Origin: Ancylobacter sp.
GTDB taxonomy: Bacteria > Pseudomonadota > Alphaproteobacteria > Rhizobiales > Xanthobacteraceae
Assembly: GCF_965279025.1 (NCBI RefSeq)
Contig: NZ_OZ257132.1
Location: forward strand, 1,993,318-2,057,317
DNA: 64,000 bases
Direction of reading: 5' to 3'
The first letter of the stretch is position 1, and the number at the start of each line of letters is the position of its first letter. Shown here in pieces: positions 23,899 through 47,505 of the stretch. The translations under genes and the position numbers were made by a program. The notes beneath the pieces were generated by a model. That model saw only the letters and a program-made list of their open reading frames with translations. It was not told the DNA's origin and made no database searches.

Positions 23899-25137
23899 TC
23901 ACCGCCTTGCCAGCTTCGGCCCGAGGGCGAGGGCGAGCGGCAGGTTGACGAGTGCGGCGACGGCGGTTCCCAGCGTCGCGATGACGGGGCCGGCCTGATC
24001 GCCTATCGCGCCGAACAGCAGCGGCGACAAGGCCCCCGAGCCGATGACGCCCGTATAGAAGATGGCGAAGGCCCGCTCGGTCCGATCCGCCGGTGCCAGT
24101 TCGGGCACGGTGCCGTACAGCACCGAGGACGTGCCGTTCAGCGTCAGCCCGAGCAGTGGCAGGAGCACCAGCAGCGGCCCAAGCGGCAGGAAGGCGGCAA
24201 GCGCGATCATCAGCGCCGTGAGCCCCTCGGTACACAGGGTGACTCCGACAATGCCCCAGCGCTGGGCGAGCCAGCCGCAGGCCAGCTTGCCCGCCGCACC
24301 GCCCAGGAAGACCAGCGCCAGCGCCGTGCCGATGAGCGGCTGCGAGGCCCCCTTCAACTGCAGCAGGAAGGGCAGGAAGGTGAGGAAGCCCATGCGCACG
24401 CCGGTGTCGATCACCCCGATGGACAGCAGCAGCGGGAAGCCGCTTCCGCCGCGCGGCGGCGCGGAACGCTGGGCGGGAGGCGGCGGGGCGGGCGCGATCT
24501 TCGGCATGGAGACGGCGATGAGGCCGGCGACCGCGATCCCCGCCAGCGCCAGCAGCCAGAGCGAGGGGCGCCATGGCGCGAAGGACAGGCCAAAGGCAAG
24601 CGCCGCCGGAATGATCGCCTTGCCGAGGTCGCCGCTGAAATTATAGGTGCCGAGCGGCCCGCGCGCCGCCGATCCATAGGCGCGCGATACCGCGCTGGAG
24701 GCGATGGGATGCTGGACGCTGGAGCCGGCCCCGGCGAGGAACAGCGCCGCGCAGAGCCCCAGCGCGCCGCCGCTGAAGCCGGCCAGCCCATAGCCGGCCG
24801 CGGCGATCAACGTGCCGAGGATCAGCACCGCGCGCCCGCCCATATGATCGGCGAGCCAGCTCGCCGGCACCTGCAGCGCGGCCATGGCCCCGGCATAGAG
24901 CCCGCGCAGCAGCGCCAGCGCGACATAGTCGAGCCCGAACTCGGCCCGCCAGACCGGAAGCAGCACATAGATCGCGTCGGTGTAGCCATCATGCAGCGCG
25001 TGGGCGAGGCCGGAGAGCACCAGCGTGCGCCGGCGCGTGTCCGGCGGGCAGGACGGCGCCGGCGACGCGGCGGATCGGGACAGGAAGGATGCTTTTGTCA
25101 CTTCATCGATATGCGACGGCTGGACGGCGGGCCGCAA
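23899..25137 (-). CDS. MFS transporter
   Basis: 412 aa of hydrophobic 12-TM-like sequence, divergent from a LysR gene. Confidence 0.8.
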   Translation of the reverse strand: MRPAVQPSHIDEVTKASFLSRSAASPAPSCPPDTRRRTLVLSGLAHALHDGYTDAIYVLLPVWRAEFGLDYVALALLRGLYAGAMAALQVPASWLADHMGGRAVLILGTLIAAAGYGLAGFSGGALGLCAALFLAGAGSSVQHPIASSAVSRAYGSAARGPLGTYNFSGDLGKAIIPAALAFGLSFAPWRPSLWLLALAGIAVAGLIAVSMPKIAPAPPPPAQRSAPPRGGSGFPLLLSIGVIDTGVRMGFLTFLPFLLQLKGASQPLIGTALALVFLGGAAGKLACGWLAQRWGIVGVTLCTEGLTALMIALAAFLPLGPLLVLLPLLGLTLNGTSSVLYGTVPELAPADRTERAFAIFYTGVIGSGALSPLLFGAIGDQAGPVIATLGTAVAALVNLPLALALGPKLARR

Positions 25138-25174
25138 ACGACTAATTTCACCGCATGACGTCAGATAAACTCAC

Positions 25175-26080
25175 ATGACCGCCCCCTCGAAAGAACGCCC
25201 ATTGCCGCCGCTCAACGCCGTGCGGGCGTTCGAGGCGGCGGCGCGCCGGTTGAGCTTCAAGGACGCTGCGGCGGAACTCGGCGTCACCCATGGCGCGGTC
25301 AGCCGGCAGATAAGGCTGCTGGAGGAATGGCTCGGCCCGCCGGCGCTGTTTCGCCGTCTGAGCCACGGCGTCGCCCTCACGGCTGAGGGCCGGGCGCTGC
25401 TCGCCGATATCCAGCCCGCGCTGGAGCGCATCGCGCGAGCGGCCTCGGCCCATGGCAGCAGGCCCAGCGGCACGGTGGTGCTGAAGGTAAACGCGCTCGC
25501 CACCTTCAGCCTGCGCTGGCTGGTACCGAAGCTCGGCCGGCTGCGCGAGGCGCATCCCGACATCGCCATCGACCTCACGACCGGCAGCGAGCCGGTGGAC
25601 GGGCTGGCCGGCGAGTACGACCTGATCATTCGCGGCGGGCCGGATGCCTTTAACGGCTTCGAGGCCCGCCTGCTGTTGCCGGAGCGGCGGCTGCCCGCCT
25701 GCAGCCCGTCGCTGTTGCACCGCCAGCCGCTGGACGAGGTGGGCGACCTGGCGCGGCACACGCTTTTGCAGGTCGCCAGCATGCCCCGGCTGTGGCGCGA
25801 CTGGTTGGCGAAGGCCGGGCATGGCGCGCTCGAACCGGCGGCGACGCTGATGCTCGACCATTTCTACCTCTCGATCCAGGCGGCGGTAGACGGGCTCGGC
25901 GTGGCAATGGCGCCGTCCACCCTGATCGAGGATGATCTGCGAGCTGGGCGGCTGGTGACGCCCTTTCCGCAGATCTCGCTGCCGTCGCGCGGCTATTTCG
26001 CCTACACCCCGGTCGACTCGCCGCTGCGCACCGCCAGCGAAAGGGTCTGCGCGTGGATCGAGGCGGTGCCCGCACATTAG
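25175..26080 (+). CDS. LysR-family transcriptional regulator (GcvA-like)
   Basis: 'LPPLNAVRAFEAAARRLSFKDAAAELGVTHGAVSRQIRLLEE' followed by a substrate-binding domain. Confidence 0.9.
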   Translation: MTAPSKERPLPPLNAVRAFEAAARRLSFKDAAAELGVTHGAVSRQIRLLEEWLGPPALFRRLSHGVALTAEGRALLADIQPALERIARAASAHGSRPSGTVVLKVNALATFSLRWLVPKLGRLREAHPDIAIDLTTGSEPVDGLAGEYDLIIRGGPDAFNGFEARLLLPERRLPACSPSLLHRQPLDEVGDLARHTLLQVASMPRLWRDWLAKAGHGALEPAATLMLDHFYLSIQAAVDGLGVAMAPSTLIEDDLRAGRLVTPFPQISLPSRGYFAYTPVDSPLRTASERVCAWIEAVPAH

Positions 26081-26260
26081 TGGCGGTGCTGGCTAGCGGC
26101 GACCGACAATGGGAGGCGTAGTCTCTATCCCCACCGCACCTCCGGCCGCCTTCGGGCACAGGTCTACCGGCACGGAGAGACGCACGGTGGAGGCCGAGAG
26201 CGTTGCGCGTGAGCTGTCAAAGGTCAGCCCCAGGAATGGCGATAGCCGCTTGGTCGACAG

Positions 26261-26377
26261 GCCCAGAGGGCGCTCAACGGTCGATCTGGGGTGCAGCAAT
26301 TTAAAAATGTGGGGCGGCTAACAGGCCTCGTCCCGAAACTTGTTCGAAATCAAAGATTTAAGCTAAATAACTGGCGG
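26261..26377. repeat. left copy of the island-flanking imperfect direct repeat (attL-like)
   Basis: It aligns with 47287..47421. Shared blocks are GTGCAGCAATT[T/C]AAAAATGTGGGG (26291..26314 vs 47323..47346) and a 21-bp core TTTAAGCTAAA[T/A]AACTGGCGG (26357..26377 vs 47401..47421). The last 6 nt of the right-hand core copy are the 3' end of tRNA-Ser. Confidence 0.7.
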
Positions 26378-26431
26378 GCCGCGAGCGACCAAGAAGAGAA
26401 CTATGTGTTCGCTATAGCCCTATGATGCCTG

Positions 26432-27532
26432 ATGACCCACTGGATCCGTTGGCGATGTCCGCTGTCGGAAACTTCGCCGCGTTTCTGGCTGATGAGGCTG
26501 CTGAGTTTGTGGTCCCCACTCAAGCGAGGCGAGACCTACCCACTACGACTGCAATATGCGACTAACGTACGATCTCGAACGTTGGTGGCGACGACAGTGA
26601 AGCTCATTTGCAATTTGAGACGGAAGTTCGACGCATTCATCGGAGTCGAAGACGGCAGGCAAAGCACGCCAGGCCTTTTCTATCTATTTTTGTTCGCCGC
26701 CGGACTTACCATCATTGTGTTCGCTGTAGCCATATTAGGGCGTGGCAGCGCCCAGGAGATGGGTCCGTTCGGCGACTTCATAGGCGGCACCCTCAATCCG
26801 CTCCTGACGTTCCTTACCTTCATGGGGCTACTGGTCACCATCGTGCTACAGCAGACGGAACTGCGGGATACGCGGGCCGAGCTGGAACGTTCTGCAACCG
26901 CCTTAGAGAAGCAGATCCATGCCACCGACCGACAAAACTTCGAATCCACGTTCTTCCAGATGCTTACGCTGCACAATACCATCGTGAACTCGATCGACCT
27001 TTTCTACAGTGGTCGGAAGCGCGCACCAGGGATTAGCACTCCCAAGGGGGCGCGAGATACGAAAGGCCGCGACTGTTTCAGCCAATTTTTTGAGAACTTC
27101 AAAGAAGAATACGTCAAAACAGCAGGCCATCCGGATCGCGAACGTCTCCAATTGGCTTACGATGCATTCTGGCAGCGCCGACAGCAGGATTTGGCGCACT
27201 ACTATCGATACTTATACAATGTTCTACGGTTTGTACATGAAGCGAAAGGGATCGAGGACCGCGGACCATACGTTAAGCTATTGCGAGCGCAGCTCTCCGA
27301 CTTCGAACTTATTATGCTATTCTATACGGCGCTAAACAAACATGGAATAAATTACTGGAGTTATATCCATGAGTATCAGCTGTTTGACAATCTCCCTGTA
27401 GGAATGTTGATCGATCCGATTCACGAGACGTACTATTCTCCGCGGTCCTTCGGCGCGCCAAAGCGACGGCCGCCCGCTGAATGGCCACCCGCGAAGCTGG
27501 CTGAGCAATCCGACGCCCGTCAGGGCGGCTAA
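26432..27532 (+). CDS. AbiC-like putative abortive-infection membrane protein (two N-terminal TM helices plus a cytoplasmic helical domain)
   Basis: TM segments 'GLFYLFLFAAGLTIIVFAVAILG' and 'LNPLLTFLTFMGLLVTIVLQQ'. They are followed by 'FESTFFQMLTLHNTIVNSI', 'HYYRYLYNVLRFVHE' and 'LLRAQLSDFELIMLFYTALN', which match my recollection of the putAbiC family. The start is uncertain: in-frame TTG/GTG codons at 26582/26585/26597 may be the real start. Confidence 0.55.
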   Translation: MTHWIRWRCPLSETSPRFWLMRLLSLWSPLKRGETYPLRLQYATNVRSRTLVATTVKLICNLRRKFDAFIGVEDGRQSTPGLFYLFLFAAGLTIIVFAVAILGRGSAQEMGPFGDFIGGTLNPLLTFLTFMGLLVTIVLQQTELRDTRAELERSATALEKQIHATDRQNFESTFFQMLTLHNTIVNSIDLFYSGRKRAPGISTPKGARDTKGRDCFSQFFENFKEEYVKTAGHPDRERLQLAYDAFWQRRQQDLAHYYRYLYNVLRFVHEAKGIEDRGPYVKLLRAQLSDFELIMLFYTALNKHGINYWSYIHEYQLFDNLPVGMLIDPIHETYYSPRSFGAPKRRPPAEWPPAKLAEQSDARQGG

Positions 27533-27779
27533 GGTTTCCGGAGCTTCGCTAGCACAACCTAGCAAACCGACTGCTCTCCAAGCCAGCATGCATCAGCGCC
27601 AATCCGGGGGCATTGGCGGGGCGCAAGGACAAAAGGAGAGCTATGTGTGATGTCTGTCCGCGTCAGCCTCTATCGCTACTATGCTTTGGGCATGAGATCC
27701 ATGTCCACCTGAACACGAGCGATCTTGCGGCGCTGAAAGTTTGGAACCAGCGCCTTCCATTGTTCATAGCGTCGCCAAC

Positions 27780-29894
27780 TCACGCTTCGCGTGCCGTCCC
27801 GGCAAGGGTGAGGAGTGTTCCTTTCGGCTTTCGGTCGTAGGTAGAGCGACCTTCTAGCATCTGAACAAAAGCGTCATTTCGATTACTCGCCCTGTCAACA
27901 AGTCTATCAAATGCAATTACTTCTAGCATTAGGTTTAGTGCGGAGTAATATCTATAAGCCATCTGTCCGCCATAATTTGTAATAGTAAAGTCTTCCATCT
28001 CCAAGTACGCCTTGAGACTATCGTTCCAATCCGCCAAAACATATCCGCGAACCATCATGTCCTGAGGAATAATTATCTCTCTTCCTCCAGAGGTATTAAT
28101 TTTCCCCTTTTTCCGGATGTCCAAGATCTGTTTTTTCAGCTGGTCAACAGGATCATTCGTTAGGCTATCGCTATCGGCCGCGTACCCCTTCTTCTGCGGG
28201 CGCTTCATCTCAACGACCATCAGTTCGTTCTGATTGTTTATAAGGAGGTCATGCGCATACTGGCCCCTAGCCCGATAGCTGCCATCCGGCGTGCGATCGC
28301 TCGAAATGTATTGTGCGTAAGCGAGATCGTCATCGAGAATCCAGAGGTTGTGAGAGCTATAATCGACCTCTTCACTGTCCTTGTAGCGAGGATAGATCAG
28401 CTCGTGAACCTTGTCCTCTGTTGCGAGCCCGTCCGCCTGCTTCTTTAATAACTCACGAAATATCTGAATTACGTGATTTCGGTAGGACACGTATACGGCC
28501 AATGCCTCTTTTGCATCTTCTGGAATTTTTGTCTTAACGATGTGAACCAATTGATCGACACTTACGGTATGATCAATTTTTGTAAAGTCGAATTTCTTTC
28601 GGAATCTCTCAACAAATAAATCCTGGGCCAACTGCTCCCGCGTCTCGGTGATCGAGCGCTTTTGCACAAAGTCGGCAGCAGACTTATCACCCAGCCCGCG
28701 ACGAAGAAGAGGATCAATTGCAATCAGGTGCTCAACCTCGGCGACCATCTTGGCTCGGCGCTCGGCCGTGTAAGCCTCCTCAATATCGAGGATATGCTGC
28801 TTTGCTATCGCAATAAGATGATCTTTGATGGATTTTCTCCTACCCGCATGATCTATCTTTCCATGTAGATTGGTAATTCTATCTCGAGACTGAGATGACA
28901 CGAAGAAATCGCTTGAGACGGCAACTAGATAATAATACCGCCGAACGGCACCGTCTATCTCTTCAGAAAACGGCTTGTCATTCAATCCAGATGAAATATT
29001 TTCAAGATCGCTTGCCGCGCGATTGTTTGCATAGAAATATAGTCTGTGCTTCTTGGCTTTATCTTCGCCAACTCTAAAATAATCAAATCTAAATTCACGT
29101 TCAACGTGTCCAATATCCAATTTATCAATCTTAGAGCCACCCGTTGAGAGAGATTTGTAAAAATAATCGTGAAGATTTAGCTTTTCGCTCTGAACGGTTA
29201 GGGAGAAGTGTTTTGGAATCTTCTTTTGAATAAATTCAATTAGAAAATGATCAAGGAGCGCCGTAGCAATAGTATCTAGAGCAGATCCATCAAAATACTG
29301 ATCGCCATCCAAATTAAAGAATACCCGTGAAGTCGACTGAGGTGACTTCATCAGCACAGTCAAGCCTGTTTCGAAACGATGCTTTCCAATCGTAGCGTCG
29401 GGGCTCACCTCGATGAGGTTGTCCTCAACTGCGAACGGCTCGTACCTGTAGGAATGGCCGGACGTGCCGCCTACCGCGTCAAACTGGCTTGAGGAGTAGT
29501 AAACTTCGTCAAATATCCTGAATGCGATGAATCTGCCGAACCCCTTGCCGCCACGTTCGTATTTGTTGCCGGTTAGAGGGGTAAGGAACGCTGTTAAATT
29601 TTTCTGATCGAACCCAACGCCGTTATCGATGATCTGGATCTCACAGCCTTCCGCATTCAACTCGATCTCAATGCGCCCGTTCGTCTCGACCTCGTCACCC
29701 CAACGTTCTTCGATGGAATGGATGGAGTTGGACACAGCCTCATAGAGAGGGAACAGAAACCCCTGAAGGCCATCCGGTAGGGTCGCCCGCTTCACCTCAG
29801 TTTCGAGGTCAATTATCCTGTGCTTCACATCTGACCTCGATACGCCGGCATGCTCACCGTTAATGGAATAGCGAACGTCACCACACCGCAGCAC
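27780..29894 (-). CDS. GHKL (Bergerat-fold, HATPase_c_3-like) ATPase fused to a C-terminal PD-(D/E)xK, Shedu/DUF4263-like nuclease domain
   Basis: N-terminal motifs 'LYEAVSNSIHSIEE', 'IQIIDNGVGF' and 'ERGGKGFGRFIAF'. C-terminal motifs 'VHELIYPR', 'HNLWILDDD' and 'AHDLLINNQNELMVVEMKRPQKK' (D-x13-ExK). About 40% GC. An alternative GTG start at 29828 follows GAGG. Confidence 0.6.
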   Translation of the reverse strand: MLRCGDVRYSINGEHAGVSRSDVKHRIIDLETEVKRATLPDGLQGFLFPLYEAVSNSIHSIEERWGDEVETNGRIEIELNAEGCEIQIIDNGVGFDQKNLTAFLTPLTGNKYERGGKGFGRFIAFRIFDEVYYSSSQFDAVGGTSGHSYRYEPFAVEDNLIEVSPDATIGKHRFETGLTVLMKSPQSTSRVFFNLDGDQYFDGSALDTIATALLDHFLIEFIQKKIPKHFSLTVQSEKLNLHDYFYKSLSTGGSKIDKLDIGHVEREFRFDYFRVGEDKAKKHRLYFYANNRAASDLENISSGLNDKPFSEEIDGAVRRYYYLVAVSSDFFVSSQSRDRITNLHGKIDHAGRRKSIKDHLIAIAKQHILDIEEAYTAERRAKMVAEVEHLIAIDPLLRRGLGDKSAADFVQKRSITETREQLAQDLFVERFRKKFDFTKIDHTVSVDQLVHIVKTKIPEDAKEALAVYVSYRNHVIQIFRELLKKQADGLATEDKVHELIYPRYKDSEEVDYSSHNLWILDDDLAYAQYISSDRTPDGSYRARGQYAHDLLINNQNELMVVEMKRPQKKGYAADSDSLTNDPVDQLKKQILDIRKKGKINTSGGREIIIPQDMMVRGYVLADWNDSLKAYLEMEDFTITNYGGQMAYRYYSALNLMLEVIAFDRLVDRASNRNDAFVQMLEGRSTYDRKPKGTLLTLAGTAREA

Positions 29895-30116
29895 CGCTCT
29901 GCACGTCTGTCCCTGTCACTAACATTTGCTATCAGGATGAAGCGTTGGAGGGAAGTTGGGAGCGCAGGCACCTAGCCAGCCCGGTGCCATTTAGCGGCGA
30001 CGCATCTCCGGCGGGCCGAGGTCGCTGTTCGACCGCTCTCCCCGGGTGATTTCGACCGCATCGTCGCGCGCGGCCTCGATGACCGCGCGCCACTGCTTCC
30101 GCGCACGGATACGGCT

Positions 30117-30578
30117 GTGCCTCAGAACGGATTCAGCGAAGAACAGGCTCCCTTTGTGTTTGAGGAGAGTCGGGAACGCGTCAGCTATCTTTCGTCGCGG
30201 ATCGTGCGGGATCGCGTCTTCCGACGCATCGTTCTACGCGCCTATGATGAGCGCTGCGCCATCAGCGGCTTGAAACTCATCAATGGCGGCGGGCGGGCCG
30301 AGGTCGCGGCTGCGCATATTCAGCCGGTTCAGGCGAACGGTCCGGATATCGTCAGCAATGGATTGGCTTTGTCAGGTACGGCGCACTGGATGTTCGACCG
30401 GGGGCTGATCAGTCTGACGGACGATCTCGACGTGCTGATCTCCCGGCACGCCAACGATCCCGATGGCGTGCGCGCCTTCATCAATCGGAGAGGACGCGCA
30501 ATTGCCCCGCAACGGGCGTTCGAGCGTCCGCATCCGCACTTCCTGCGTTGGCATCGGGAGCACTGCTTCAAGCAGTGA
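30117..30578 (+). CDS. HNH endonuclease (HNH_2-type), probably 5'-truncated
   Basis: 'FRRIVLRAYDERCAISGLKL...AAHIQPV...NGLALSGTAHWMFDRGLISL'. The frame is open upstream to 29976 with no ATG. The composition break lies just upstream. Confidence 0.6.
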   Translation: MPQNGFSEEQAPFVFEESRERVSYLSSRIVRDRVFRRIVLRAYDERCAISGLKLINGGGRAEVAAAHIQPVQANGPDIVSNGLALSGTAHWMFDRGLISLTDDLDVLISRHANDPDGVRAFINRRGRAIAPQRAFERPHPHFLRWHREHCFKQ

Positions 30579-31233
30579 GGCCGACTCCATCGTGACGCTG
30601 CAACTGCAGCAAGCCCCCGACATCCCTGCGGATGCGCCGCAGCTCTGGCCACGGGAAATGCCGCCCCTCGGCGCCATCCGCGCCGACGGCAAGCAGCACG
30701 TCGAGCTTCGTGGAGAGGCCGCGCAGAGACGTGGCTTCCGCTGCAAGAACTCCCTTCATCAGGCGCTCTTCTTCGTCGGAAGCCGCCTCCTCTTGCTGTC
30801 GAGCGACGGAGTAGCCGATGGCGCGATCCGCGTCGTCCCAGCGTTGTTGATGTTTGCGCAGCGCGGCCGCAACTTCATCGCGCCGAGTGCTCAGCGACGG
30901 CACATCGGCCGCAAGCTCATCGAACTGTCGCAGTGAGCTGATGCGAATCGCAGACGGCAGCTCGGCTGCAACAAGGACCGCCTGCGGAAATCCGATCGTC
31001 CGCGCGAGTTCGGACTCCAAACGCTGCTGTTTCCGACACAGGGCGAGCGTGCGCCGATGAGCGGCGCTCCACGCTTCCCACGCGAGAACGGCCGCATCAG
31101 TTGCGCCACCATCTAGCGGCGCGGATGCAGTCGAACGGTTGAAAGAGGTTCCACCGACCGTCAGCAGGGCGGCAGACAGAACGTCCCTCCGGGATGGCCG
31201 GGACAGACTCGTGGTAATCTCAGAATCAGCCAT
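30568..31233 (-). CDS. hypothetical protein with a Tat-like leader
   Basis: 'MADSEITTSLSRPSRRDVLSAALLTVGG' followed by a helical Ala/Arg/Glu-rich body. I recognise no family. Confidence 0.4.
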   Translation of the reverse strand: MADSEITTSLSRPSRRDVLSAALLTVGGTSFNRSTASAPLDGGATDAAVLAWEAWSAAHRRTLALCRKQQRLESELARTIGFPQAVLVAAELPSAIRISSLRQFDELAADVPSLSTRRDEVAAALRKHQQRWDDADRAIGYSVARQQEEAASDEEERLMKGVLAAEATSLRGLSTKLDVLLAVGADGAEGRHFPWPELRRIRRDVGGLLQLQRHDGVGLTA

Positions 31234-31365
31234 GATCCGAGCTCCAATCAGCTTGGTTGTGGTCAGGCCGGGATGGGTGTTCGCGCACTCACCCCGGCCG
31301 CTATACGTGCAATGCACGTGCATGACTCTGCCTCGAACTACGCCGGATCGCAAGCAATAAGGCCG

Positions 31366-31554
31366 ATGACGAAACAGCCCTTCACTACCCGCATTGATGC
31401 TGACGTACTCGCGCTGGCGCGCCAGCTCGCTGACGCCGAGCGGCGATCGATTACGGCTTTGATTGAAGTTGCCTTGCTCGAATATGCCGAGCGTCGCGGC
31501 ATCTCAGTCGCCGAAACATCGCAAGAGGTCGCCCAGCCTAAGCGCGGCAAATGA
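31366..31554 (+). CDS. ribbon-helix-helix (CopG/Arc-like) DNA-binding protein
   Basis: 62 aa. 'FTTRIDADVLALARQLADAERRSITALIEVALLEYAERRG' shows the RHH strand-helix-helix pattern. Confidence 0.55.
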   Translation: MTKQPFTTRIDADVLALARQLADAERRSITALIEVALLEYAERRGISVAETSQEVAQPKRGK

Positions 31555-32208
31555 TACCGAGATCGGCGACTTCCACGATCAACCGATAGCACGTCCAGCT
31601 TCCGTTCATTGCTGCTCATGCGCACAAAAACTGCGACCTCTGTGCAGATCGGCGGCAGTTTCTCTGCAAGTTTTCTGCACGGCGATGCACATCCATTGAC
31701 ATCACCAGTGCAGACTCGACGCCGGTTGGGCTGCCGCTTGGACGGCTTTTGCCCGCGAATCCGCCGCTTCGCCGATCTCGCGTCCGACAGCGCTCGTGGT
31801 AGCCTCGGTGCCCGCAGCGTGTCAGCGGCTCCCGCTGGCCAAAACGTGGCCTTCTCGGTCAGAACTTGGTAGTATATTCGGCCGGTATTTTCTGAATTAG
31901 CTGGCAGGCAGTGAAGAAGAAGAAATTGAGCGCAAGATAAAGCGATCTGTCGATCGCAATGTCTGGCGACATTGTCCGGTTGTCTGCACATTGGTTTTGG
32001 CAGATTGAGGCACCGTGCGGAGCCCAAATCTTAGGGTGCTGAGGGATGGGTCGGCTGACGTAACGTCCTGATCTGGCTTGGAGTTGTTGGCCGAGACCGC
32101 AATGTGCGCTCCGCCCTTTGCACGCTGAGACAAGTCTTTGAGCGCCAATCTGCGACCCCGCCGTTTCTACGCTTGATACTCTGGGGCGACGCCGTTCATC
32201 GTGCCTGC

Positions 32209-32876
32209 ATGTCACAGGAAGACAGGGACACGTTCCGAGTACGCCCAGGCCGGATCCGTCAGCGCGGCACGCGACAGAGCAGCCTTGCGGCGCTGCCGTT
32301 CCGGCGCCAAGTTGAGATCGCGGTGCGCGAGGCCGGCGGCTGGTCGGGCCGGAAGGAAAGCGGGCGCTACAACGCCCGCGGCCGCGGTGTCCGGGCGGTA
32401 AGCGCGCTGTCCGGTGTTGACCGCGGCTGGAAGGTCGATGCGGGTGGGCGGTTCCGTTCTCGCCGCGTGGTGGTGAAGGCGCGAGTGGTGAAGCTCGGCG
32501 TCGTGCGGGGCCGCGGAGGTCGCAAGACGGTCGGTGCTTCCGCCAAGGCGGTCGATGCACATCTGCGCTATCTCCAGCGCGACGGTGTGACGCCCGACCG
32601 GCAGAAGGGACGCTGCTATTCGGCATTCGAGGATGAGGCCGATGGCAAGGTCTTCCTGGAGCGCGGTCGCGAGGACCGTCACCAGTTCCGCTTCATTGTC
32701 GCACCAGAAGATGGATTGCAGCTCGGCGACCTCAAAGGCTTCACCCGCGAGCTGATGGGGCAGATGGAAAGCGATCTCGGAACCAAGCTCGACTGGATTG
32801 CCGTCGATCATCACAACACCGGCCATACCCACACCCACGTGCTGGTGCGAGGCGTCACCGATGAGGGACGTACCCT
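32209..32876 (+). pseudogene. conjugative relaxase (VirD2/MobA-type, DUF3363-family N-terminus), 3'-truncated by IS insertion
   Basis: 'FRVRPGRIRQRG...HLRYLQRDGV...HQFRFIVAPED...WIAVDHHNTGHTHTHVLVRG' (histidine triad). The reading frame runs straight into the IS terminal repeat at 32877. Confidence 0.7.
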
Positions 32877-32935
32877 TGACCTGAGACCCATTTCTCCTCC
32901 GGCTTAAGAGAGAGTCCGAGGGTTGATTTGTGGCC

Positions 32936-33775
32936 TCATGCGGCCTCGGTTTCCAGTGCGATTGTTGCCGCGAACTCGGCAGGGGATCGATTGCCGAGAG
33001 CTGAATGGGGACGGTTCACATTGTAGTCCTCCTTCCATGAGGCGATAGCGGCGCGAGCCTGGGGCAGGTGCGAGAACAGTGTCTCGTTCAAACATTCGTC
33101 CCGGAAGCGGCCGTTGAAGCTCTCGACGAAGCCGTTCTGCGTGGGCTTGCCGGGCGCGATGTAATGCCATTCGACGCCGGTCTGCTGGCACCATTTGAGC
33201 ACCGCCATCGAGGTTAGTTCAGTGCCATTGTCCGACACGATGGTTGAAGGCTTGCCCCGAACAGCCATGATCTCGTCCAGCTCGCGCGTCACTCGAAGGC
33301 CGGAGAGCGAGGTGTCGACGACCAGTGCCAGGCACTCCCGGCTGAAGTCGTCGACAACGGCCAGCACCCGGAAGCGGCGGCCGTCCGTGAAGGCGTCCGA
33401 CACGAAATCGAGACTCCAGCGAAGGTTGACCCGATCCGGCACCAGCATAGGCCGTCTTGTGCCAAGCGCCCGTTTGCGACCACCTCGCCGACGCACCTGG
33501 AGCTTTTCCTCTCGATACAGCCGGCGCAGCTTCTTCTGGTTCATCACGATGCCCTGACGCCGCAGCATGACGTGGATCCGTCGGTAGCCGAAGCGGCGGC
33601 GCTCGCCGGCCACGGCTTTCATGGCGTCGCGCAGGGCCGCATCGTCAGGACGGACGCTTCGATAGCGCATACTGGTGCGATCGAAGCTCAATGCCTTGCA
33701 CGCCCGACGCTGGCTCACCCCGTGCTCGGCACAGGCATGGGCCACGGCTTTACGCCTCACATCGAGCGTCACCAT
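32936..33775 (-). CDS. IS3-family transposase OrfB (DDE integrase core)
   Basis: '[13 protein letters not shown]', 'WSLDFVSD', '[11 protein letters not shown]', '[28 protein letters not shown]'. Confidence 0.9.
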
Positions 33776-34035
33776 TTTTTTGAGGCGACATCCTTCAGGA
33801 TAGCGTTGTCCAGCATCTGCTCGGCGAGCAGCTTCTTCAGGCGGGCGTTCTCATCCTCAAGCGCCTTCAGCCGGCGGGCATCCGACACGTCCATGCCGCC
33901 ATACTTTGCCTTGAACTTGTAGAAGGTCGCCGAGGAGATGCCGTGCTTGCGGCACACGTCAGCGGTCTTCGCCCCCGCCTCCTGCTCCTTCAGCATGCCG
34001 ATGATCTGCTCTTCCGTGAACCGTGAGGCTCGCAT
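33769..34035 (-). CDS. IS3-family transposase OrfA (HTH)
   Basis: '[70 protein letters not shown]'. A GGAG Shine-Dalgarno sequence precedes ATG 34035. Confidence 0.9.
33775..33781 (-). other. programmed -1 frameshift slippery heptamer (A AAA AAA) at the orfA/orfB overlap
   Basis: A run of 7 T on the plus strand sits exactly where the orfA stop and orfB start overlap. This is the canonical IS3-family arrangement. Confidence 0.6.
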
Positions 34036-34168
34036 CGTCCGTCTCCGTGATCGACGGACTCTACTCAAATCTGGAGGAGGATCGGGGTCTCAGGTCAGCG
34101 ACGGAAAGGCAGAATTTGCTAAGCCGGCCAATCTGTTCCCGTACGAGCTTAACCGCTATTGCAAATTC

Positions 34169-37100
34169 ATGGGGTATTTGGCCCCCAACCTTGTAGTTTG
34201 CCCGACCGTAAACAGCAGGGGAACTGGCTGGGTCGAGGATAATATCGTCCTTGACTTCAACGGGAGCGGGACCGACGACTTTATCTGGTCGCAGTCATAT
34301 CGTGGAAACTGCGAGGGCCTAACTCAATGCCCGCATCTACGAGGTGGGTCAGATGTCTACAGCATTGACCACACCAAGCCCACGAACAAGCTGAGCATAA
34401 AATCGGTCACCATTCCAACGCCGTGGTATCAGTTCAGTCTCAGGGATCCCGTTCCGTATAAACACAATATCGTCGTCGGCGACTTCAACGGCGATGGCGG
34501 CGAAGACATATTTATGACGAGTGATGCCGTCGGCGTTACAACGGGGTCCGCCATTCGGCTGTTCAGCTATAATGGGTCTGCCTTGAGCGGACGAACCGTT
34601 ACAATCGCCGGTCTGTCCACATTGCCGGCGAGTTCGTTTCCTTCACCGTCATTTGCTGCGCCAGACATTGACGGCGATGGCCGGTCGGAACTCGCGCTCG
34701 GCACGAAACTCTATAACTTGAACGCGGCGGGCGGGAACTTCGCTCCCAGAGCAACGATCCAGAAGGCCACGTATTCTGCCGATTTCAATGGCGATGGGAA
34801 GTCGGATCGCATTGCGATGGGTGCCGGCGGCGGCACAGCCCTTTCTATTGCGTACTCAAACGGCGCGACGTTCGACCCCCCCGTAGACGTTGTCAGTCTC
34901 AACTACGATTCACCTCGTATCACCCTTGGGGACTTCGATGGCGACGGCCGGGCCGATATCGCTTTCCAGCCCAGGAGCCAGACCTATTCGAACCTCACCA
35001 CCCGCGTTTATCTTTCGCGTGGGTCGCAGCCTTGGGAGCGGATCGATCTGCCTCCCATCTATGGAGCGGCCGACTTTAATGGCGACGGGCGGGCGGACAT
35101 CATCAGGGCTGCCGCCACTCAAGTCTACAACTCGACGAGGGTGAACTATTCGCTCGACGGCCGGGTGTATCTGGCGACCTTTGGCGTGCCGGACCTCCTG
35201 ACCTCCGTCACCACACCTTACGGCGCCATGACCAGCGTGACCTATGCGCCGTCCTCGGAATGGACGCGCAGCAATCGGCTGCCCTCGACCTACCAGACGG
35301 TGAAGGAAGTCTCGGTCTTCGACGGCCGGGCCACCACCTCGACGACAAAATACGCCTATGCCGGCGCGCTGTATGACTTTGCCGAGCGGCGCTTCCTCGG
35401 CTATCGCACCGCCACCATGACGCTGCCCTGCGAGAGCTGGGAGACGGCCTGCCCGACGCGTGAGTACACCTTCCGCCAGGATGTGGCGTCCGCCGGCAAG
35501 ATCGAGCGGCTGGTCTACCGGGACGACAGCGGCGTCGTGTTGCGCGAGGATGGCGAGAGCTACGAGGACATCCGGCTGGACCTGCCGCCGTTCTTCTCCC
35601 GCAACACCGCCTCCGAGCGGGTGATGTGGGCCGGCGGCCAGTCCCGCACCGCCCGCACCGAGCGGGTCTTCGATGTCTACGGCAATGTGACGGCGCTGCA
35701 GGAGCGCGGCCTCGTCGGCGTGGCGCAGGACGATCGCTCGACGGTAAAGGCCTTCGCGCCGAACAGCACCGCCTACATCGTCGACAGGCCACGCGAGGAG
35801 CTGCGCTATGGCTCTGGGGGCACCTCGAGCACGCCGCTGGCGCGCAGCCTGGTGTTCTATGACGGGGCCACGGTGAACGCGACGCCGCCGGTGCGCGGCG
35901 ACCCGACGAAGATGCGGCGCTGGCTCGGCCCGGCGGATAACTGGGTGGAGCGAACCGCCGAGTATGACAGCTACGGCAACCGCACCGCCGAGATCGACGA
36001 GGTCGGCAACCGCACCGAACATGTCTTCGATCCCGTCCATCACCTGCTGGAGGTCGAGACCAAGCAGCCGCCCTATTTTGACGGCGATACCCGCTTCCGC
36101 ACCACCACCGCGTGGAACCCGACCTGCCGCACCGCGGCGGTCGAGACCGACATCAACCTGCAGCCGACCACCCGCTCCTATGACGCGCTGTGCCGGCTGA
36201 CCCGACTGGTGCCGCCCGGCAATGACTTCCGGGGCTATGAGTACCGAGACATCGGCAATCCGGCGAGCCAGGGGATCATCGTCACCCGGCCCGGCGCAAC
36301 GGCGGCGGGCGATGCCTGGACCGGCTACTTCTTCGACGGGCTCTCCCGCGCCTATCTGACCTCGTCGCGCGGGCCGGCGGCGAACCAGGCCATCGTGCTG
36401 CAGCGCAGCTTCACCACGCGCGGCGAGATCGCCACCCTCTCTCTGCCCTATTACCAGAACGAGACGCCGCAGTTCTCGAACATGACCTATGACGGCCTCG
36501 ACCGTCAGACCCTCACCGTCCTGCCAGACGCGGCAACCATCACGCAGAGCTACGGCCTCAGCGCCGCGCCGCTCGGCCTTGTCAGCGCGACCACCACCGA
36601 CCCCAACGGCAATGTCGCGGTGGTCCACACCGACGCCTTCGACAACAAGGTCCGCGAGGACCGCATGCTCGGCGGCTTCGCCGTCTCCACCAACTATGGC
36701 TGGGATGGGCTTAACCGGCTCGCCACCATCACCGATCCGATCGGGGCGCCGTGGTCCTATCAGTACGACACGCTGTCCCGCCGAACCGTCGCACAGGATC
36801 CCGATGCCGGGGCGTCGTCTTACAGCTATGACGCCGCCGGCCGAATGCTGTCCCGCACCGATGCACGCGCCACTGTGACCACCTTCACCTATGATCGGCT
36901 CTCGCGCGTCACCTCGCAGACGGTGGCGCCAAGCGGCGGGCCCTCCGAGGCCACAACGTCCACCTATGACGAGGCGCGCGCCGGCTTCTACAATGTCGGC
37001 AAGCTCACCACACAGACCAAGGCCAACATCTCCACCACCCGCACCGACTACGACATGGCCGGCCGGGCGGTACGCGAGCAATGGACGGTGCCGCCCTCAG

Positions 37101-38983
37101 GCACAGGGTCAGAGACCTTCACGCTGGAGACCCGCTATGACGAGGGCGGGCGCCTGCGCGGCAAGAGCTTTCCCAATGGCGACGTCGTCGGCACGCCGGC
37201 CAATCCGTGGACCTATAACGAGGCCGGCCGGCTGCTCACCGTCCCCGGCCATGTCAGCGCCTTCCTCTATGACGCCGCCGGCAAGACGACCTCGGCGACC
37301 TACGCCAATGGCGTGACCACCGCCTTCGCCTATTCGCTGCCGCGCGGCTGGCTCGACCAGGTCACCACGGCGAAGGCCGGTACCACGCTGTTCCAGGCGA
37401 TCTATGCGCACGATGCCGGCGGGCGCATCACCTCGGTGGCCACGTCAGGCACCGCGCCGACCGTGCCGGGCGACAGCTGGACCTATAGCTATGACGACCT
37501 CGACCGGCTGATCACCGCGGACAATACCGACGACAGCCGCGACCAGAGCTTCACTTATGACAATGCCGGCCGCCTGACCTCAGCCACAGGGGTCGGCGCC
37601 TACACCTATCCCGCGCCGACCGCGCCTCGCCCGCATGCGCCGCTCACCATCGACGGCGCGGCGCTGAGCTGGGATGCCGGCGGCAACCTCACCAATGGGC
37701 GCGGACGCACCCTCGCCTGGGACGGCGAGAACCGTCCTGCCACCATCACGCTCGCCGGCGCCAGCGTGGCGATGACCTACGGCCCCGAGGGCGAGCGGCT
37801 AAAGAAGACCACCGCGACGGAGATCCCGCCGGGCTCGGCCTGCACATCCCCGGCGCCGCAGAAGGTGACGCTCACCGTTACCGGCGATATCGAGCGGGTG
37901 ACCTCCTATTCGTGCGAGGGCACGCCTGCCGCCTGGACGGCGAAGACCTCCTGGCGGCTCGATGTCCACGCCGACACGCAGCTGGTGACGCCGGATGCCG
38001 GCGGCGCCACCGCGCCGGTGTTCCTGCATCGCGACCATCTCGCGAGCGTCAAGCTCACCACCGACGCCACCGGCTGCGTCGCCAGCCGCTCGGCCTATCG
38101 CCCCTATGGCGACCGGACGCAGGCGGAAGCCCCATCCGTCCCCGGCTGCTCGCCCGCCGCGCCCGCAGAGCCGCGCGGCTTCATCGGCGAGCGCCACGAT
38201 CCGGAGACCGGCCTGCTCTATCTCCACGCCCGTTATTACGACCCGGTGATCGGGCGGTTCCTCTCCCCCGACACCCTAGACCCGATCGAGCCCGGCGTCG
38301 GCACCAACCGCTACGCCTATGCCGACAATGATCCGGTCAACAAGAGCGATCCGAACGGGCATCAAACCAGCGATAATGCTTCAGACCGCACTACAGGTGT
38401 AGGCAGCGAGGGCGAGGGAAAAGAGGGCGCCAACAACGCAAACGAAAACGCCGACTCCTCTAACTCAAACCAGACAGAAACTGAGCTCGACACGATAACG
38501 GTCGAGAAGGCGCGCAAAGCTAAATTGGGGGGGGCTTCCGGCAAAGGAACGACCCAACTCGCGATGATGGCGCGGCGCAATAAAAGTTTGCCTCCAGAGC
38601 TGGACAACTTCTCGGGCGGCGGTGGGCCTCCCTTGGTTAGTTCGCGAGGAGCCGGCCCGGTAAGCGGGAGGTGGGGCGGGCGATATTACAAAGGAGATGG
38701 AGGCGGATGGACAAATGCGTTGGAGCACATACTTTACCGACATGGGCCCAATACCGAAGCTACGGGAGTAAGTAAATTCGCGCCAAATACGACCACGAGG
38801 GACATAAAAAGCATGGTTGACGAGACATTAAGAGTTGGCAAATCCACTTTCACGGGTCGCGGAGGCTATACGATTGAACATGATTTCGGTCGAAATATCG
38901 GAATAAGAATAGATGGCACTCCTACAAATAATCTACGCGTTCATGTTAGAGATGGTGAAATCGATACAGCTTATCCATTTTAA
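34169..38983 (+). CDS. TcB/TcC-like FG-GAP (VCBS) + RHS/YD-repeat polymorphic toxin, N-terminally truncated by the IS
   Basis: FG-GAP repeats ('[12 protein letters not shown]', '[11 protein letters not shown]', '[12 protein letters not shown]', '[13 protein letters not shown]', '[12 protein letters not shown]'). A TcdB-mid-like '[19 protein letters not shown]'. Many YD repeats. RHS core end '[15 protein letters not shown]...[19 protein letters not shown]'. Native sequence begins at 34098, and the first native in-frame ATG is at 34169. Confidence 0.85.
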
Positions 38984-38998
38984 ATAAAGGAGATAAAT

Positions 38999-39241
38999 GT
39001 GATTGACCTCTTTTTGTCTGTCTTTTTAAGAGAGGAGGTGACTCCATATGTAAAGAAGTTGCTTTGCTCTAAAATAAACAATAGAACAACCATGATAATC
39101 GATAAAATAGGACTAAATAAGTATGATATAACGATAGATTTTGAGAAAAATACCGTTCTAATAGAAGAAATAACGTTTATCGAATTCGCTGAAGTTCGAG
39201 AAATGTCTATTTCAGAATTCCTTGAAATGCTTAAGTGTTGA
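38999..39241 (+). CDS. putative cognate immunity protein for the RHS C-terminal toxin
   Basis: 80 aa at about 27% GC, starting 16 nt after the toxin stop. AAGGAG lies 6 nt before the GTG start. No family recognised, so the call rests on position. Confidence 0.55.
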   Translation: MIDLFLSVFLREEVTPYVKKLLCSKINNRTTMIIDKIGLNKYDITIDFEKNTVLIEEITFIEFAEVREMSISEFLEMLKC

Positions 39242-47286: not shown

Positions 47287-47421
47287 GCCCACGCGAGAGG
47301 GCGATCAATGGTCGGTCGGGGCGTGCAGCAATTCAAAAATGTGGGGTAAAATGAGGGTGACTGAGCTAATTCAGTCGAAAAACGCTTTATAAATCAATGC
47401 TTTAAGCTAAAAAACTGGCGG
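47287..47421. repeat. right copy of the island-flanking imperfect direct repeat (attR-like), overlapping the tRNA-Ser 3' end
   Basis: See 26261..26377. The core copy at 47401..47421 ends inside the tRNA acceptor 3' strand. Confidence 0.7.
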
Positions 47422-47505
47422 AGGGAGCGGGATTCGAACCCGCGATACGGTTTCCCGTATACACACTTTCCAGGCGTGCGCCTTCAACCACTCGGCCACC
47501 CCTCC
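47416..47505 (-). tRNA. tRNA-Ser (anticodon GGA), 90 nt with a long variable arm and encoded CCA
   Basis: Folded by hand: acceptor GGAGGGG/TCCCTCC, anticodon stem CACGC/GTGTG with loop CT-GGA-AA, variable arm TATACGGGAAACCGTATC, T-arm GCGGG-TTCGAAT-CCCGC, then a discriminator G and CCA. Confidence 0.9.

Follow-up and report, generated by a model that had tools for sequence, protein, structure and literature searches.

The fusion of a GHKL-type ATPase to a nuclease of the PD-(D/E)xK superfamily within one polypeptide is an architecture already known: it was predicted in 2008, catalogued within the Shedu group in 2023 and shown experimentally in 2025. Here we characterize a gene of this kind in a 64,000-nucleotide stretch of the genome of Ancylobacter sp. 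(assembly GCF_965279025.1, contig NZ_OZ257132.1, positions 1,993,318 to 2,057,317; the whole of this stretch is termed the window, and the product of the gene the window protein). A preliminary description, made from the letters alone, had proposed the gene as an undescribed defence gene without a characterized counterpart. The publications on paraMORC3 (2008), Shedu type 1D (2023) and VcSduA (2025) precede that proposal, and the window gene is an ordinary additional member of a known family, not a new system.

In the earliest of these accounts Iyer, Abhiman and Aravind (2008) introduced paraMORC3, in which a GHKL plus S5 module precedes a conserved C-terminal domain of restriction-endonuclease fold carrying an E-D-ExK signature (PMC2292703). 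Such proteins were prevalent in Proteobacteria and Bacteroidetes, often stood alone, had no conserved neighbours and lay in mobile hotspots (PMC2292703). Gu et al. (2023) carried a PSI-BLAST search from the Bacillus cereus DUF4263 domain to convergence, and described as type 1D Shedu those proteins combining a GHKL fold with an "N24" domain akin to the middle domain of Hsp90, MORC and topoisomerases (bioRxiv 10.1101/2023.08.10.552793).

Adams et al. (Nat Microbiol 2025) then characterized VcSduA (A1552VC_00276; AWB73059.1), a protein of 673 residues encoded in VSP-II of the WASA lineage of Vibrio cholerae, joining a GHKL ATPase at the N-terminus to a PD-(D/E)xK (DUF4263) nuclease at the C-terminus (PMC12137116). 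In Escherichia coli it protects strongly against T1-like Drexlerviridae, and in V. cholerae against vibriophage X29; this protection is robust at all multiplicities of infection (MOIs) and abolished by either E27A or K557A. The dimer predicted for it is entwined, its middle domain resembling a clamp, a tetramer model being poorly supported; about 1.2% of genomes contain homologues, and the family is equated with paraMORC3 by the authors (PMC12137116).

An intact gene of the VcSduA family

An uninterrupted open reading frame (ORF) occupies 27780..29894 on the minus strand, comprising 704 codons when counted from the first GTG. Translation probably begins at the GTG at 29828 (V23 in the 704-residue ORF), giving 682 residues, because the gene-caller product has that length, orthologues begin MKH(K/R)xIDL, and a GAGG motif lies 6 nt upstream; the 22 codons further upstream, up to 29894, are probably not translated. 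All residue numbers refer to the 682-residue protein. The gene is real and intact. A scan for promoters and terminators gave no signal exceeding shuffled background.

On sequence grounds the window protein belongs to the catalogued VcSduA family, most decisively because near-orthologues are listed in the published VcSduA table, and also because BLASTP matches the two proteins directly. Three members of its clade occur among the 543 MacSyFinder hits of that table (PMC12137116 preprint supplement). Entry 453, from Rhizobium sp. CB3171 (QA648_RS08190, NZ_CP121652.1), starts MKHKSIDLASEVKRAALPDGLQGF and corresponds to our homologue P0004, which is 79% identical to the window protein; entry 524, from Tritonibacter mobilis (PEPIB2_RS21625; P0103), is 65% identical to it; and entry 157, from Silicimonas algicola, falls in the same alphaproteobacterial clade. 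The direct comparison, made with residues 1-399 of the 673 of VcSduA, gave 26% identity over 299 residues (E=9e-18), with VcSduA 22-295 aligned to 25-309 of the window protein and E27 paired with E30. The same portion of VcSduA matched P0170, a representative that a profile of the window protein's clade had recovered, at 52% identity over its full length (E=1e-146), and a further representative, P0208, at 50%. The column of E30 holds E27 in P0170, and that of K542 holds K562 in P0170 (678 residues) and K559 in P0208 (670 residues).

The family is large. More than 270 close homologues, mainly from Alphaproteobacteria, share 63-80% identity with the window protein over the whole length, and a profile of these homologues retrieved 2105 proteins at E<=1e-3 (391 at E<=1e-30) from 1.84 billion cluster representatives, nearly all of them 650-700 residues long and aligned end to end. 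The Prokaryotic Genome Annotation Pipeline names the close homologues no more than "ATP-binding protein" or "hypothetical protein"; across the family, public annotation also uses "sensor histidine kinase".

Conservation was assessed in an alignment of 101 family members that are only 21-29% identical to the window protein. Invariant throughout are E30, N34, D68, G70, G72, G96, G98, R317 and R450 and, in the C-terminal part, E471, H475, W496, S510, D527, E540 and K542; Q563 and D600 are conserved in at least 90% of members. As both sets of catalytic motifs are invariant across so diverse a family, the ATPase and the nuclease centres are, on this alignment, both under selection family-wide. The family consensus over the nuclease motifs reads RPDI...IxEFKRP...NPIxQxxxY. 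In the alphaproteobacterial clade, whose members begin MKHKxIDL, AHD replaces the usual RPD before the second core strand (beta-2), and about 13 residues between beta-2 and beta-3 are missing.

The ATPase, middle domain and linker

The preliminary description had read a complete Bergerat-fold motif set at the N-terminus, and this holds. The strings on which it relied are present in the translation: the N-box LYEAVSNSIHSIEE, IQIIDNGVGF and the glycine-rich lid ERGGKGFGRFIAF, with VHELIYPR, HNLWILDDD, YISSD, AHDLLINNQNELMVVEMKRPQKK and VDQLKKQILDI in the C-terminal module. The motif residues are invariant, and Pfam HATPase_c matches residues 29-106 with E=7e-6, just over the gathering score. A Pfam search had been suggested as a check on both ends of the protein; HATPase_c bore it out at the N-terminus, whereas HATPase_c_3 matched below threshold, and no Pfam model, that of DUF4263 included, matched the C-terminus of the window protein. 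Among 72 diverse family members, HATPase_c is present in 59 and HATPase_c_3 in 56.

About 300 residues of helical sequence had been described after the ATPase. That is accurate for the linker (residues 334-462), which is helical, but not for residues ~171-333, which form a beta-rich domain of Hsp90/MutL type. The latter gave a weak profile match to the transducer region of Mlh1 (E=0.034), and a weak match to the DNA_mis_repair domain appeared in the Pfam scan of the 72 members.

An AlphaFold2 (AF2) model built from the 101 diverse homologues reached a mean predicted local distance difference test score (pLDDT) of 87.9 and a predicted template modelling score (pTM) of 0.72; in an earlier model from 47 close homologues the C-terminal domain was poor (pLDDT 35-75). 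When the full-length model was searched with Foldseek, the N-terminal plus middle domains of Hsp90 and TRAP1 were the best matches (E~1e-11), and viral Hsp90 and type II topoisomerase ATPases headed those from BFVD. Because about 450 columns align with the N-terminal and middle domains of Hsp90/TRAP1, the modelled ATPase module looks Hsp90-like in fold, nearer to Hsp90/TRAP1 than to MORC, with weak similarity to the MutL transducer. The earlier picture of a MORC- or paraMORC-style sensor coupled to a Shedu-type nuclease thus keeps its paraMORC3-type ATPase and its PD-(D/E)xK domain, but not the emphasis on a MORC-like fold. A sequence search of the PDB with the protein and three profiles gave marginal histidine-kinase, Mlh1 and coiled-coil matches only, with no nuclease and no Shedu chain.

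The PD-(D/E)xK nuclease domain

A PD-(D/E)xK core had been proposed for the C-terminus, and the model and the alignment agree with it: E471, D527, E540-K542 and Q563 lie on a predicted alpha-beta-beta-beta-alpha-beta core, with pLDDT above 90, whose elements are helix 467-478, strands 507-509, 528-532 and 535-541, helix 560-574 and strand 592-599. The spacing reads D-x12-E-x-K, one residue less than the D-x13-E-x-K originally given. Of the non-GHKL Pfam matches spread across the 72 diverse members, six were to families of the PD-(D/E)xK clan (two to PDDEXK_9 and one each to Uma2, HSDR_N_2, NucS_C and SduA_C). The clan makes up well under 1% of Pfam, so that this number of clan matches is far above chance. 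With E-D-ExK-Q invariant on the right secondary-structure elements and these clan matches in family members, assignment of the C-terminal domain to the PD-(D/E)xK superfamily is well supported; this motif set on such a core is generic to the superfamily, not specific to Shedu. A profile of the C-terminal domain alone, searched against 5.8 billion proteins, returned only fragments of the same family and none with a different N-terminus.

Beyond the core, the C-terminal tail carries G660, D665, R666 and L672 conserved in the alphaproteobacterial clade, and is missing from most of the wider family.

Genomic setting

Base composition sets the gene apart, as had been noticed by hand counting; the counts (22/60 G+C at 28801-28860 and 43/60 at 25201-25260) are exact. 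The gene has 46.8% G+C and the islet at 26.1-30.1 kb about 51%, against 65.7% for the window. Placement of the islet at the edge of a tRNA-associated island could not be upheld, because the sole tRNA in the window, a tRNA-Ser at 47416-47505, lies 17.5 kb from the gene with ordinary metabolic genes between them (encoding a thiamine pyrophosphate enzyme, a flavin oxidoreductase and a beta-lactamase-family protein).

The AbiC-like neighbour was correctly recognized: its product matches putAbiC (Table 1), and the two genes are convergent within the islet. A role for putAbiC as a functional partner was considered and rejected, as no putAbiC homologue adjoins any other family member; it looks like an independent gene of abortive-infection type. 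A conserved small upstream partner gene was likewise rejected, the upstream ORFs of different homologues being unrelated. At eight homologue loci the neighbours differ in each and the flanking ORFs share no similarity, and some homologues (Rhizobium, Devosia) are inserted singly between housekeeping genes, others lying on plasmids or in regions rich in integrases and transposases. On the Tritonibacter mobilis plasmid the homologue is followed, about 80 bp downstream and on the same strand, by an Abi_C (PF14355) gene, with YAcAr and NTP_transf_8/DUF6788 genes upstream and flanking insertion sequence (IS) elements, an arrangement that looks like a small plasmid-borne defence cluster. The context is in keeping with an accessory defence gene that moves horizontally and lies in a variable conflict island.

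Where the islet borders on high-GC DNA, an HNH ORF matches only the C-terminal half of NF045808, the model of a phosphorothioated-DNA-binding restriction endonuclease. It appears to be truncated at its 5' end, and the insertion that introduced the defence genes may have cut it. The relaxase-like ORF further on is probably a remnant of a mobilizable element; ORFs on the opposite strand at 30568-32626 gave no family match. Since orfA of the IS3 element overlaps the annotated start of the Rhs gene on the opposite strand, the Rhs gene itself probably starts downstream of that point. The Rhs core ends in a DPNGH motif, followed by a C-terminal tip of about 250 residues without Pfam match; G+C falls to 47-58% over 38.0-39.5 kb, as is typical of a swapped toxin/immunity cassette. 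On the left border, long overlapping ORFs on both strands at 23899-26080 are high-GC artefacts, and the strong AT skew seen at 24-25 kb (0.35) falls on the transporter gene.

Table 1. Features of the gene, its product and the surrounding DNA (window coordinates; residue numbers of the 682-residue protein)
Feature	Coordinates	Strand	Basis
Complete gene, 682-aa GHKL-ATPase/PD-(D/E)xK nuclease (VcSduA / paraMORC3 / Shedu type I-D family)	27780..29828	-	ORF, gene caller, orthologue starts
GAGG Shine-Dalgarno-like motif, 6 nt upstream of GTG 29826-29828	29835..29838	-	Read from sequence
Bergerat-fold GHKL ATPase domain, aa 1-170	29319..29828	-	Pfam HATPase_c, invariant motifs, Foldseek
N-box PLYEAVSNSIHSIE with E30 and N34	29709-29750	-	Motif
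DNGVG	29613-29627	-	Motif
ATP-lid GGKGFG	29535-29552	-	Motif
Beta-rich middle domain (S5/transducer-like, Hsp90-middle-like), aa 171-333	28830..29318	-	AF2 pLDDT ~90, Foldseek
Invariant R317 in middle domain	28878-28880	-	Family alignment
Helical linker, aa 334-462, long helices, invariant R450	28443..28829	-	AF2 secondary structure, conservation
PD-(D/E)xK nuclease domain, aa 463-660	27849..28442	-	AF2 fold, invariant motifs, clan matches
Motif I: E471 on first helix; H475 also invariant	within 27849..28442	-	AF2 model, alignment
Motif II: D527, start of beta-2	28248-28250	-	AF2 model, alignment
Motif III: E540-M-K542 on beta-3	28203-28211	-	AF2 model, alignment
Motif IV: Q563 on helix after beta-3	28140-28142	-	AF2 model, alignment
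C-terminal tail, aa 661-682 plus stop	27780..27848	-	Predicted disordered, pLDDT <50 for 666-682
Low-GC islet with GHKL-nuclease gene and independent putAbiC gene	26100..30100	.	GC; flanks 65-70% GC host DNA
putAbiC-family protein, 366 aa	26432..27532	+	PF16872 E=7e-18; PHROG 8999 E=1.5e-34; weak PADLOC AbiP/AbiC
HNH ORF, 153 aa	30117-30578	+	NF045808 profile positions 157-284 of 284, 103 bits, cutoff 180; PADLOC HNH E=8.5e-21
ORF with weak partial MobA/VirD2 relaxase-domain match	32104-32907	+	E=8.5e-5, 23.3 bits, cutoff 24.6
IS3-family transposase orfB	32936-33775	-	NF033516, E=7e-71
IS3 orfA, HTH_Tnp_1	33769-34068	-	E=9e-25
Rhs/Tc-type polymorphic toxin, 1681 aa, together with the 80-aa ORF after it	33938-39241	+	FG-GAP, TcdB_toxin_midN, RHS repeats
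80-aa low-GC ORF, likely immunity protein	38999-39241	+	Position after Rhs tip
Major facilitator superfamily (MFS) transporter	23899-25137	-	Left border, ordinary host DNA ~70% GC
LysR regulator, divergent from MFS transporter gene	25175-26080	+	Left border host DNA

Discussion

From its architecture, its homology to VcSduA and its context, we consider it very probable that the product of the window gene is an immune nuclease of the VcSduA/paraMORC3/Shedu type I-D family which acts alone against phages, and that the gene was acquired horizontally into a variable island. If the properties of VcSduA carry over, the protein alone would protect against phages, protection would need both the glutamate of the ATPase (E27 in VcSduA, E30 here) and the lysine of the nuclease (K557 in VcSduA, by position K542 here), and the outcome would be direct destruction of phage DNA instead of abortive infection, as protection by VcSduA at all MOIs indicates. 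Binding of ATP would dimerize the N-terminal domains, as in other GHKL enzymes; dimerization would close a clamp of middle domains and linkers round a ligand, for which invading DNA or a DNA end is the likeliest candidate; and this conformational cycle would license the paired C-terminal nuclease domains to cut. In GHKL enzymes the gamma-phosphate is sensed by R380 of Hsp90 and K307 of MutL, and the invariant R317 of the middle domain is probably a sensor of this kind.

Several points weigh against an immune nuclease of specifically Shedu type, or against carrying the properties of VcSduA over to the window protein. The clade shares only about 26% identity with VcSduA, and its defence role is assigned by analogy; the clamp-and-license cycle is likewise one that we infer from related enzymes. 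Equivalence of K557 with K542 fits by position and not by alignment, because VcSduA was compared over residues 1-399. No family-level match for the window protein came from PADLOC v2, NCBIfam or PHROGs, PADLOC, which had been suggested as a check, returning noise only. SduA_C, the Pfam model of DUF4263, failed to match the window protein, also when its C-terminal fragment was searched at E<=10, and matched only one of the 72 diverse members (E=0.0077). Hsp90, TRAP1 and topoisomerase ATPases fill the Foldseek matches listed (PDB, BFVD), the C-terminal domain being unrepresented among them; the structural check proposed earlier yielded a confident model with the order of elements of a nuclease, and matches for the ATPase part. 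The layout had been likened to that of DUF4263/Shedu nucleases, and of this the superfamily motifs and their order stand, while the specific label falls short of threshold: the majority consensus of the domain scores 19.1 bits on SduA_C against a cutoff of 27. That the nuclease is specifically of DUF4263/Shedu type is weakly indicated.

In one alternative the gene serves defence but its nuclease is RecB/Cas4-like or a PD-(D/E)xK lineage of its own, "Shedu" being a label of convenience, the active form a GHKL-driven dimer rather than a tetramer, and paraMORC3 a family in its own right. We regard this as unlikely, though the least so of the alternatives to the preferred reading. RecB-family nucleases were recovered with the paraMORC3 C-terminal domain by Iyer et al. 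(PMC2292703), the NPxxQxxxY helix of the wider family resembles the RecB-type QxxxY motif, and the tetramer model of VcSduA is the poorly supported one (PMC12137116). SduA_C stayed under its gathering threshold in every test, and the C-terminal profile found neither a protein annotated with PF14082 nor a Shedu chain of solved structure. Yet SduA_C is the best Pfam match of the domain consensus (E=0.0015), the alignment covering almost all of the model (positions 14-159 of 159), one family member matches the SduA model of PADLOC (E=0.0012), and GHKL-bearing proteins were reached by PSI-BLAST from the B. cereus DUF4263 domain (10.1101/2023.08.10.552793). The motif order E..D..ExK..Q is moreover the same as in B. 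cereus Shedu.

Many single-protein defence nucleases act by abortive infection, and a triggered nuclease that degrades host as well as phage DNA, killing the cell, would be in keeping with the Abi-type gene adjoining here and the Abi_C gene adjoining on the Tritonibacter plasmid. These adjoining genes are not conserved partners, however, and VcSduA protects at all MOIs tested (PMC12137116), B. cereus Shedu being likewise non-abortive; defence by general toxicity accordingly seems improbable to us. Still less credible is a function outside immunity, either as a MutL/MORC-like enzyme of DNA repair or chromosome manipulation or as an orphan component of a restriction-modification system elsewhere in the genome. 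Some homologues do lie between housekeeping genes, and Iyer et al. thought that stand-alone paraMORC3 might work independently of restriction-modification systems (PMC2292703); but one family member suffices alone for phage protection (PMC12137116), the distribution is patchy, and low G+C and surroundings with mobile elements speak for an accessory gene that moves horizontally. The truncated neighbours (the HNH and relaxase fragments) might suggest that the gene is itself a decaying, inactive remnant, which we find scarcely tenable: its ORF runs without a break to the full length usual in the family, none of the family-invariant residues has been lost, and identity to many orthologues is 63-80% along the whole length.

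Within the preferred reading of an immune nuclease, it is rather unlikely that the alphaproteobacterial MKHKxIDL clade forms a functionally distinct subtype of GHKL-Shedu; its differences could mean another trigger, another target (for example plasmids or integrative and conjugative elements instead of phages) or another mode of autoinhibition. The Hsp90-like module could also sense a phage protein as a "client" instead of DNA, as Gu et al. have speculated (bioRxiv 10.1101/2023.08.10.552793). One of the 72 family members matches TmtA of the Tiamat system in PADLOC (E=1.3e-6), presumably through the GHKL domain common to both; the window protein gave noise only. The match is a hint that Tiamat has a GHKL module related to this one.

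As a discovery the gene carries little weight, near-orthologues being already present in the published VcSduA table. It marks a small conflict island comprising the AbiC-like gene, the GHKL-Shedu gene, an HNH remnant, an IS3 element and an Rhs toxin. More than 2,000 clusters at 50% identity are invisible to PADLOC v2, NCBIfam and Pfam SduA_C, though one member has been validated experimentally. We know of no structure or biochemistry for any GHKL-type Shedu. What interest remains lies in this poor annotation of the family, in the mechanism of GHKL-type Shedu, and in the divergence of the alphaproteobacterial clade from VcSduA.

Comparison with known systems

In three-dimensional structure the best matches for residues ~1-450 are Hsp90, TRAP1 and HtpG, yet sequence identity to these is 11-16%, and the NCBIfam HSP90 model gives the window protein 14.5 bits against a cutoff of 455. 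The C-terminal dimerization domain of Hsp90 is replaced by the helical linker and nuclease, and the window protein resembles Hsp90 in fold only. MutL and MORC likewise combine a GHKL domain and transducer with an associated nuclease activity; the C-terminal endonuclease of MutL, however, is not of PD-(D/E)xK type, unlike that of the window protein, and Foldseek places the Hsp90 family first.

SduA of B. cereus B4264 (DUF4263/PF14082) is a single-protein immune nuclease, as read here for the window protein, and its motifs E204/D249/E264-K266/Q295 follow the same order as E471/D527/E540-K542/Q563. In Shedu a variable N-terminal regulatory module controls the C-terminal nuclease, GHKL plus N24 being listed as one such module. 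Canonical Shedu proteins are tetramers or octamers whose regulation involves an sPC4/Whirly N-domain and a motif-II loop; the homotetramer is built through the nuclease domain, and rearrangement of the loop brings activation. The GHKL-Shedu family, by contrast, is predicted to form a GHKL-type dimer needing ATP hydrolysis.

The features of paraMORC3, namely GHKL plus S5, a C-terminal E-D-ExK domain and stand-alone occurrence, are all found in the window protein or its family; paraMORC3 differs in its purely computational definition, its restriction-modification context and a nuclease tied to the RecB family, not to DUF4263 (PMC2292703). VcSduA has the same single-gene architecture, near-equal length (673 against 682 residues), a homologous N-terminal 300 residues and the same N-box. 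The window protein and its clade are set apart from it by an identity of about 26%, by AHD in place of RPD, by the loss of about 13 residues, and by a conserved disordered tail.

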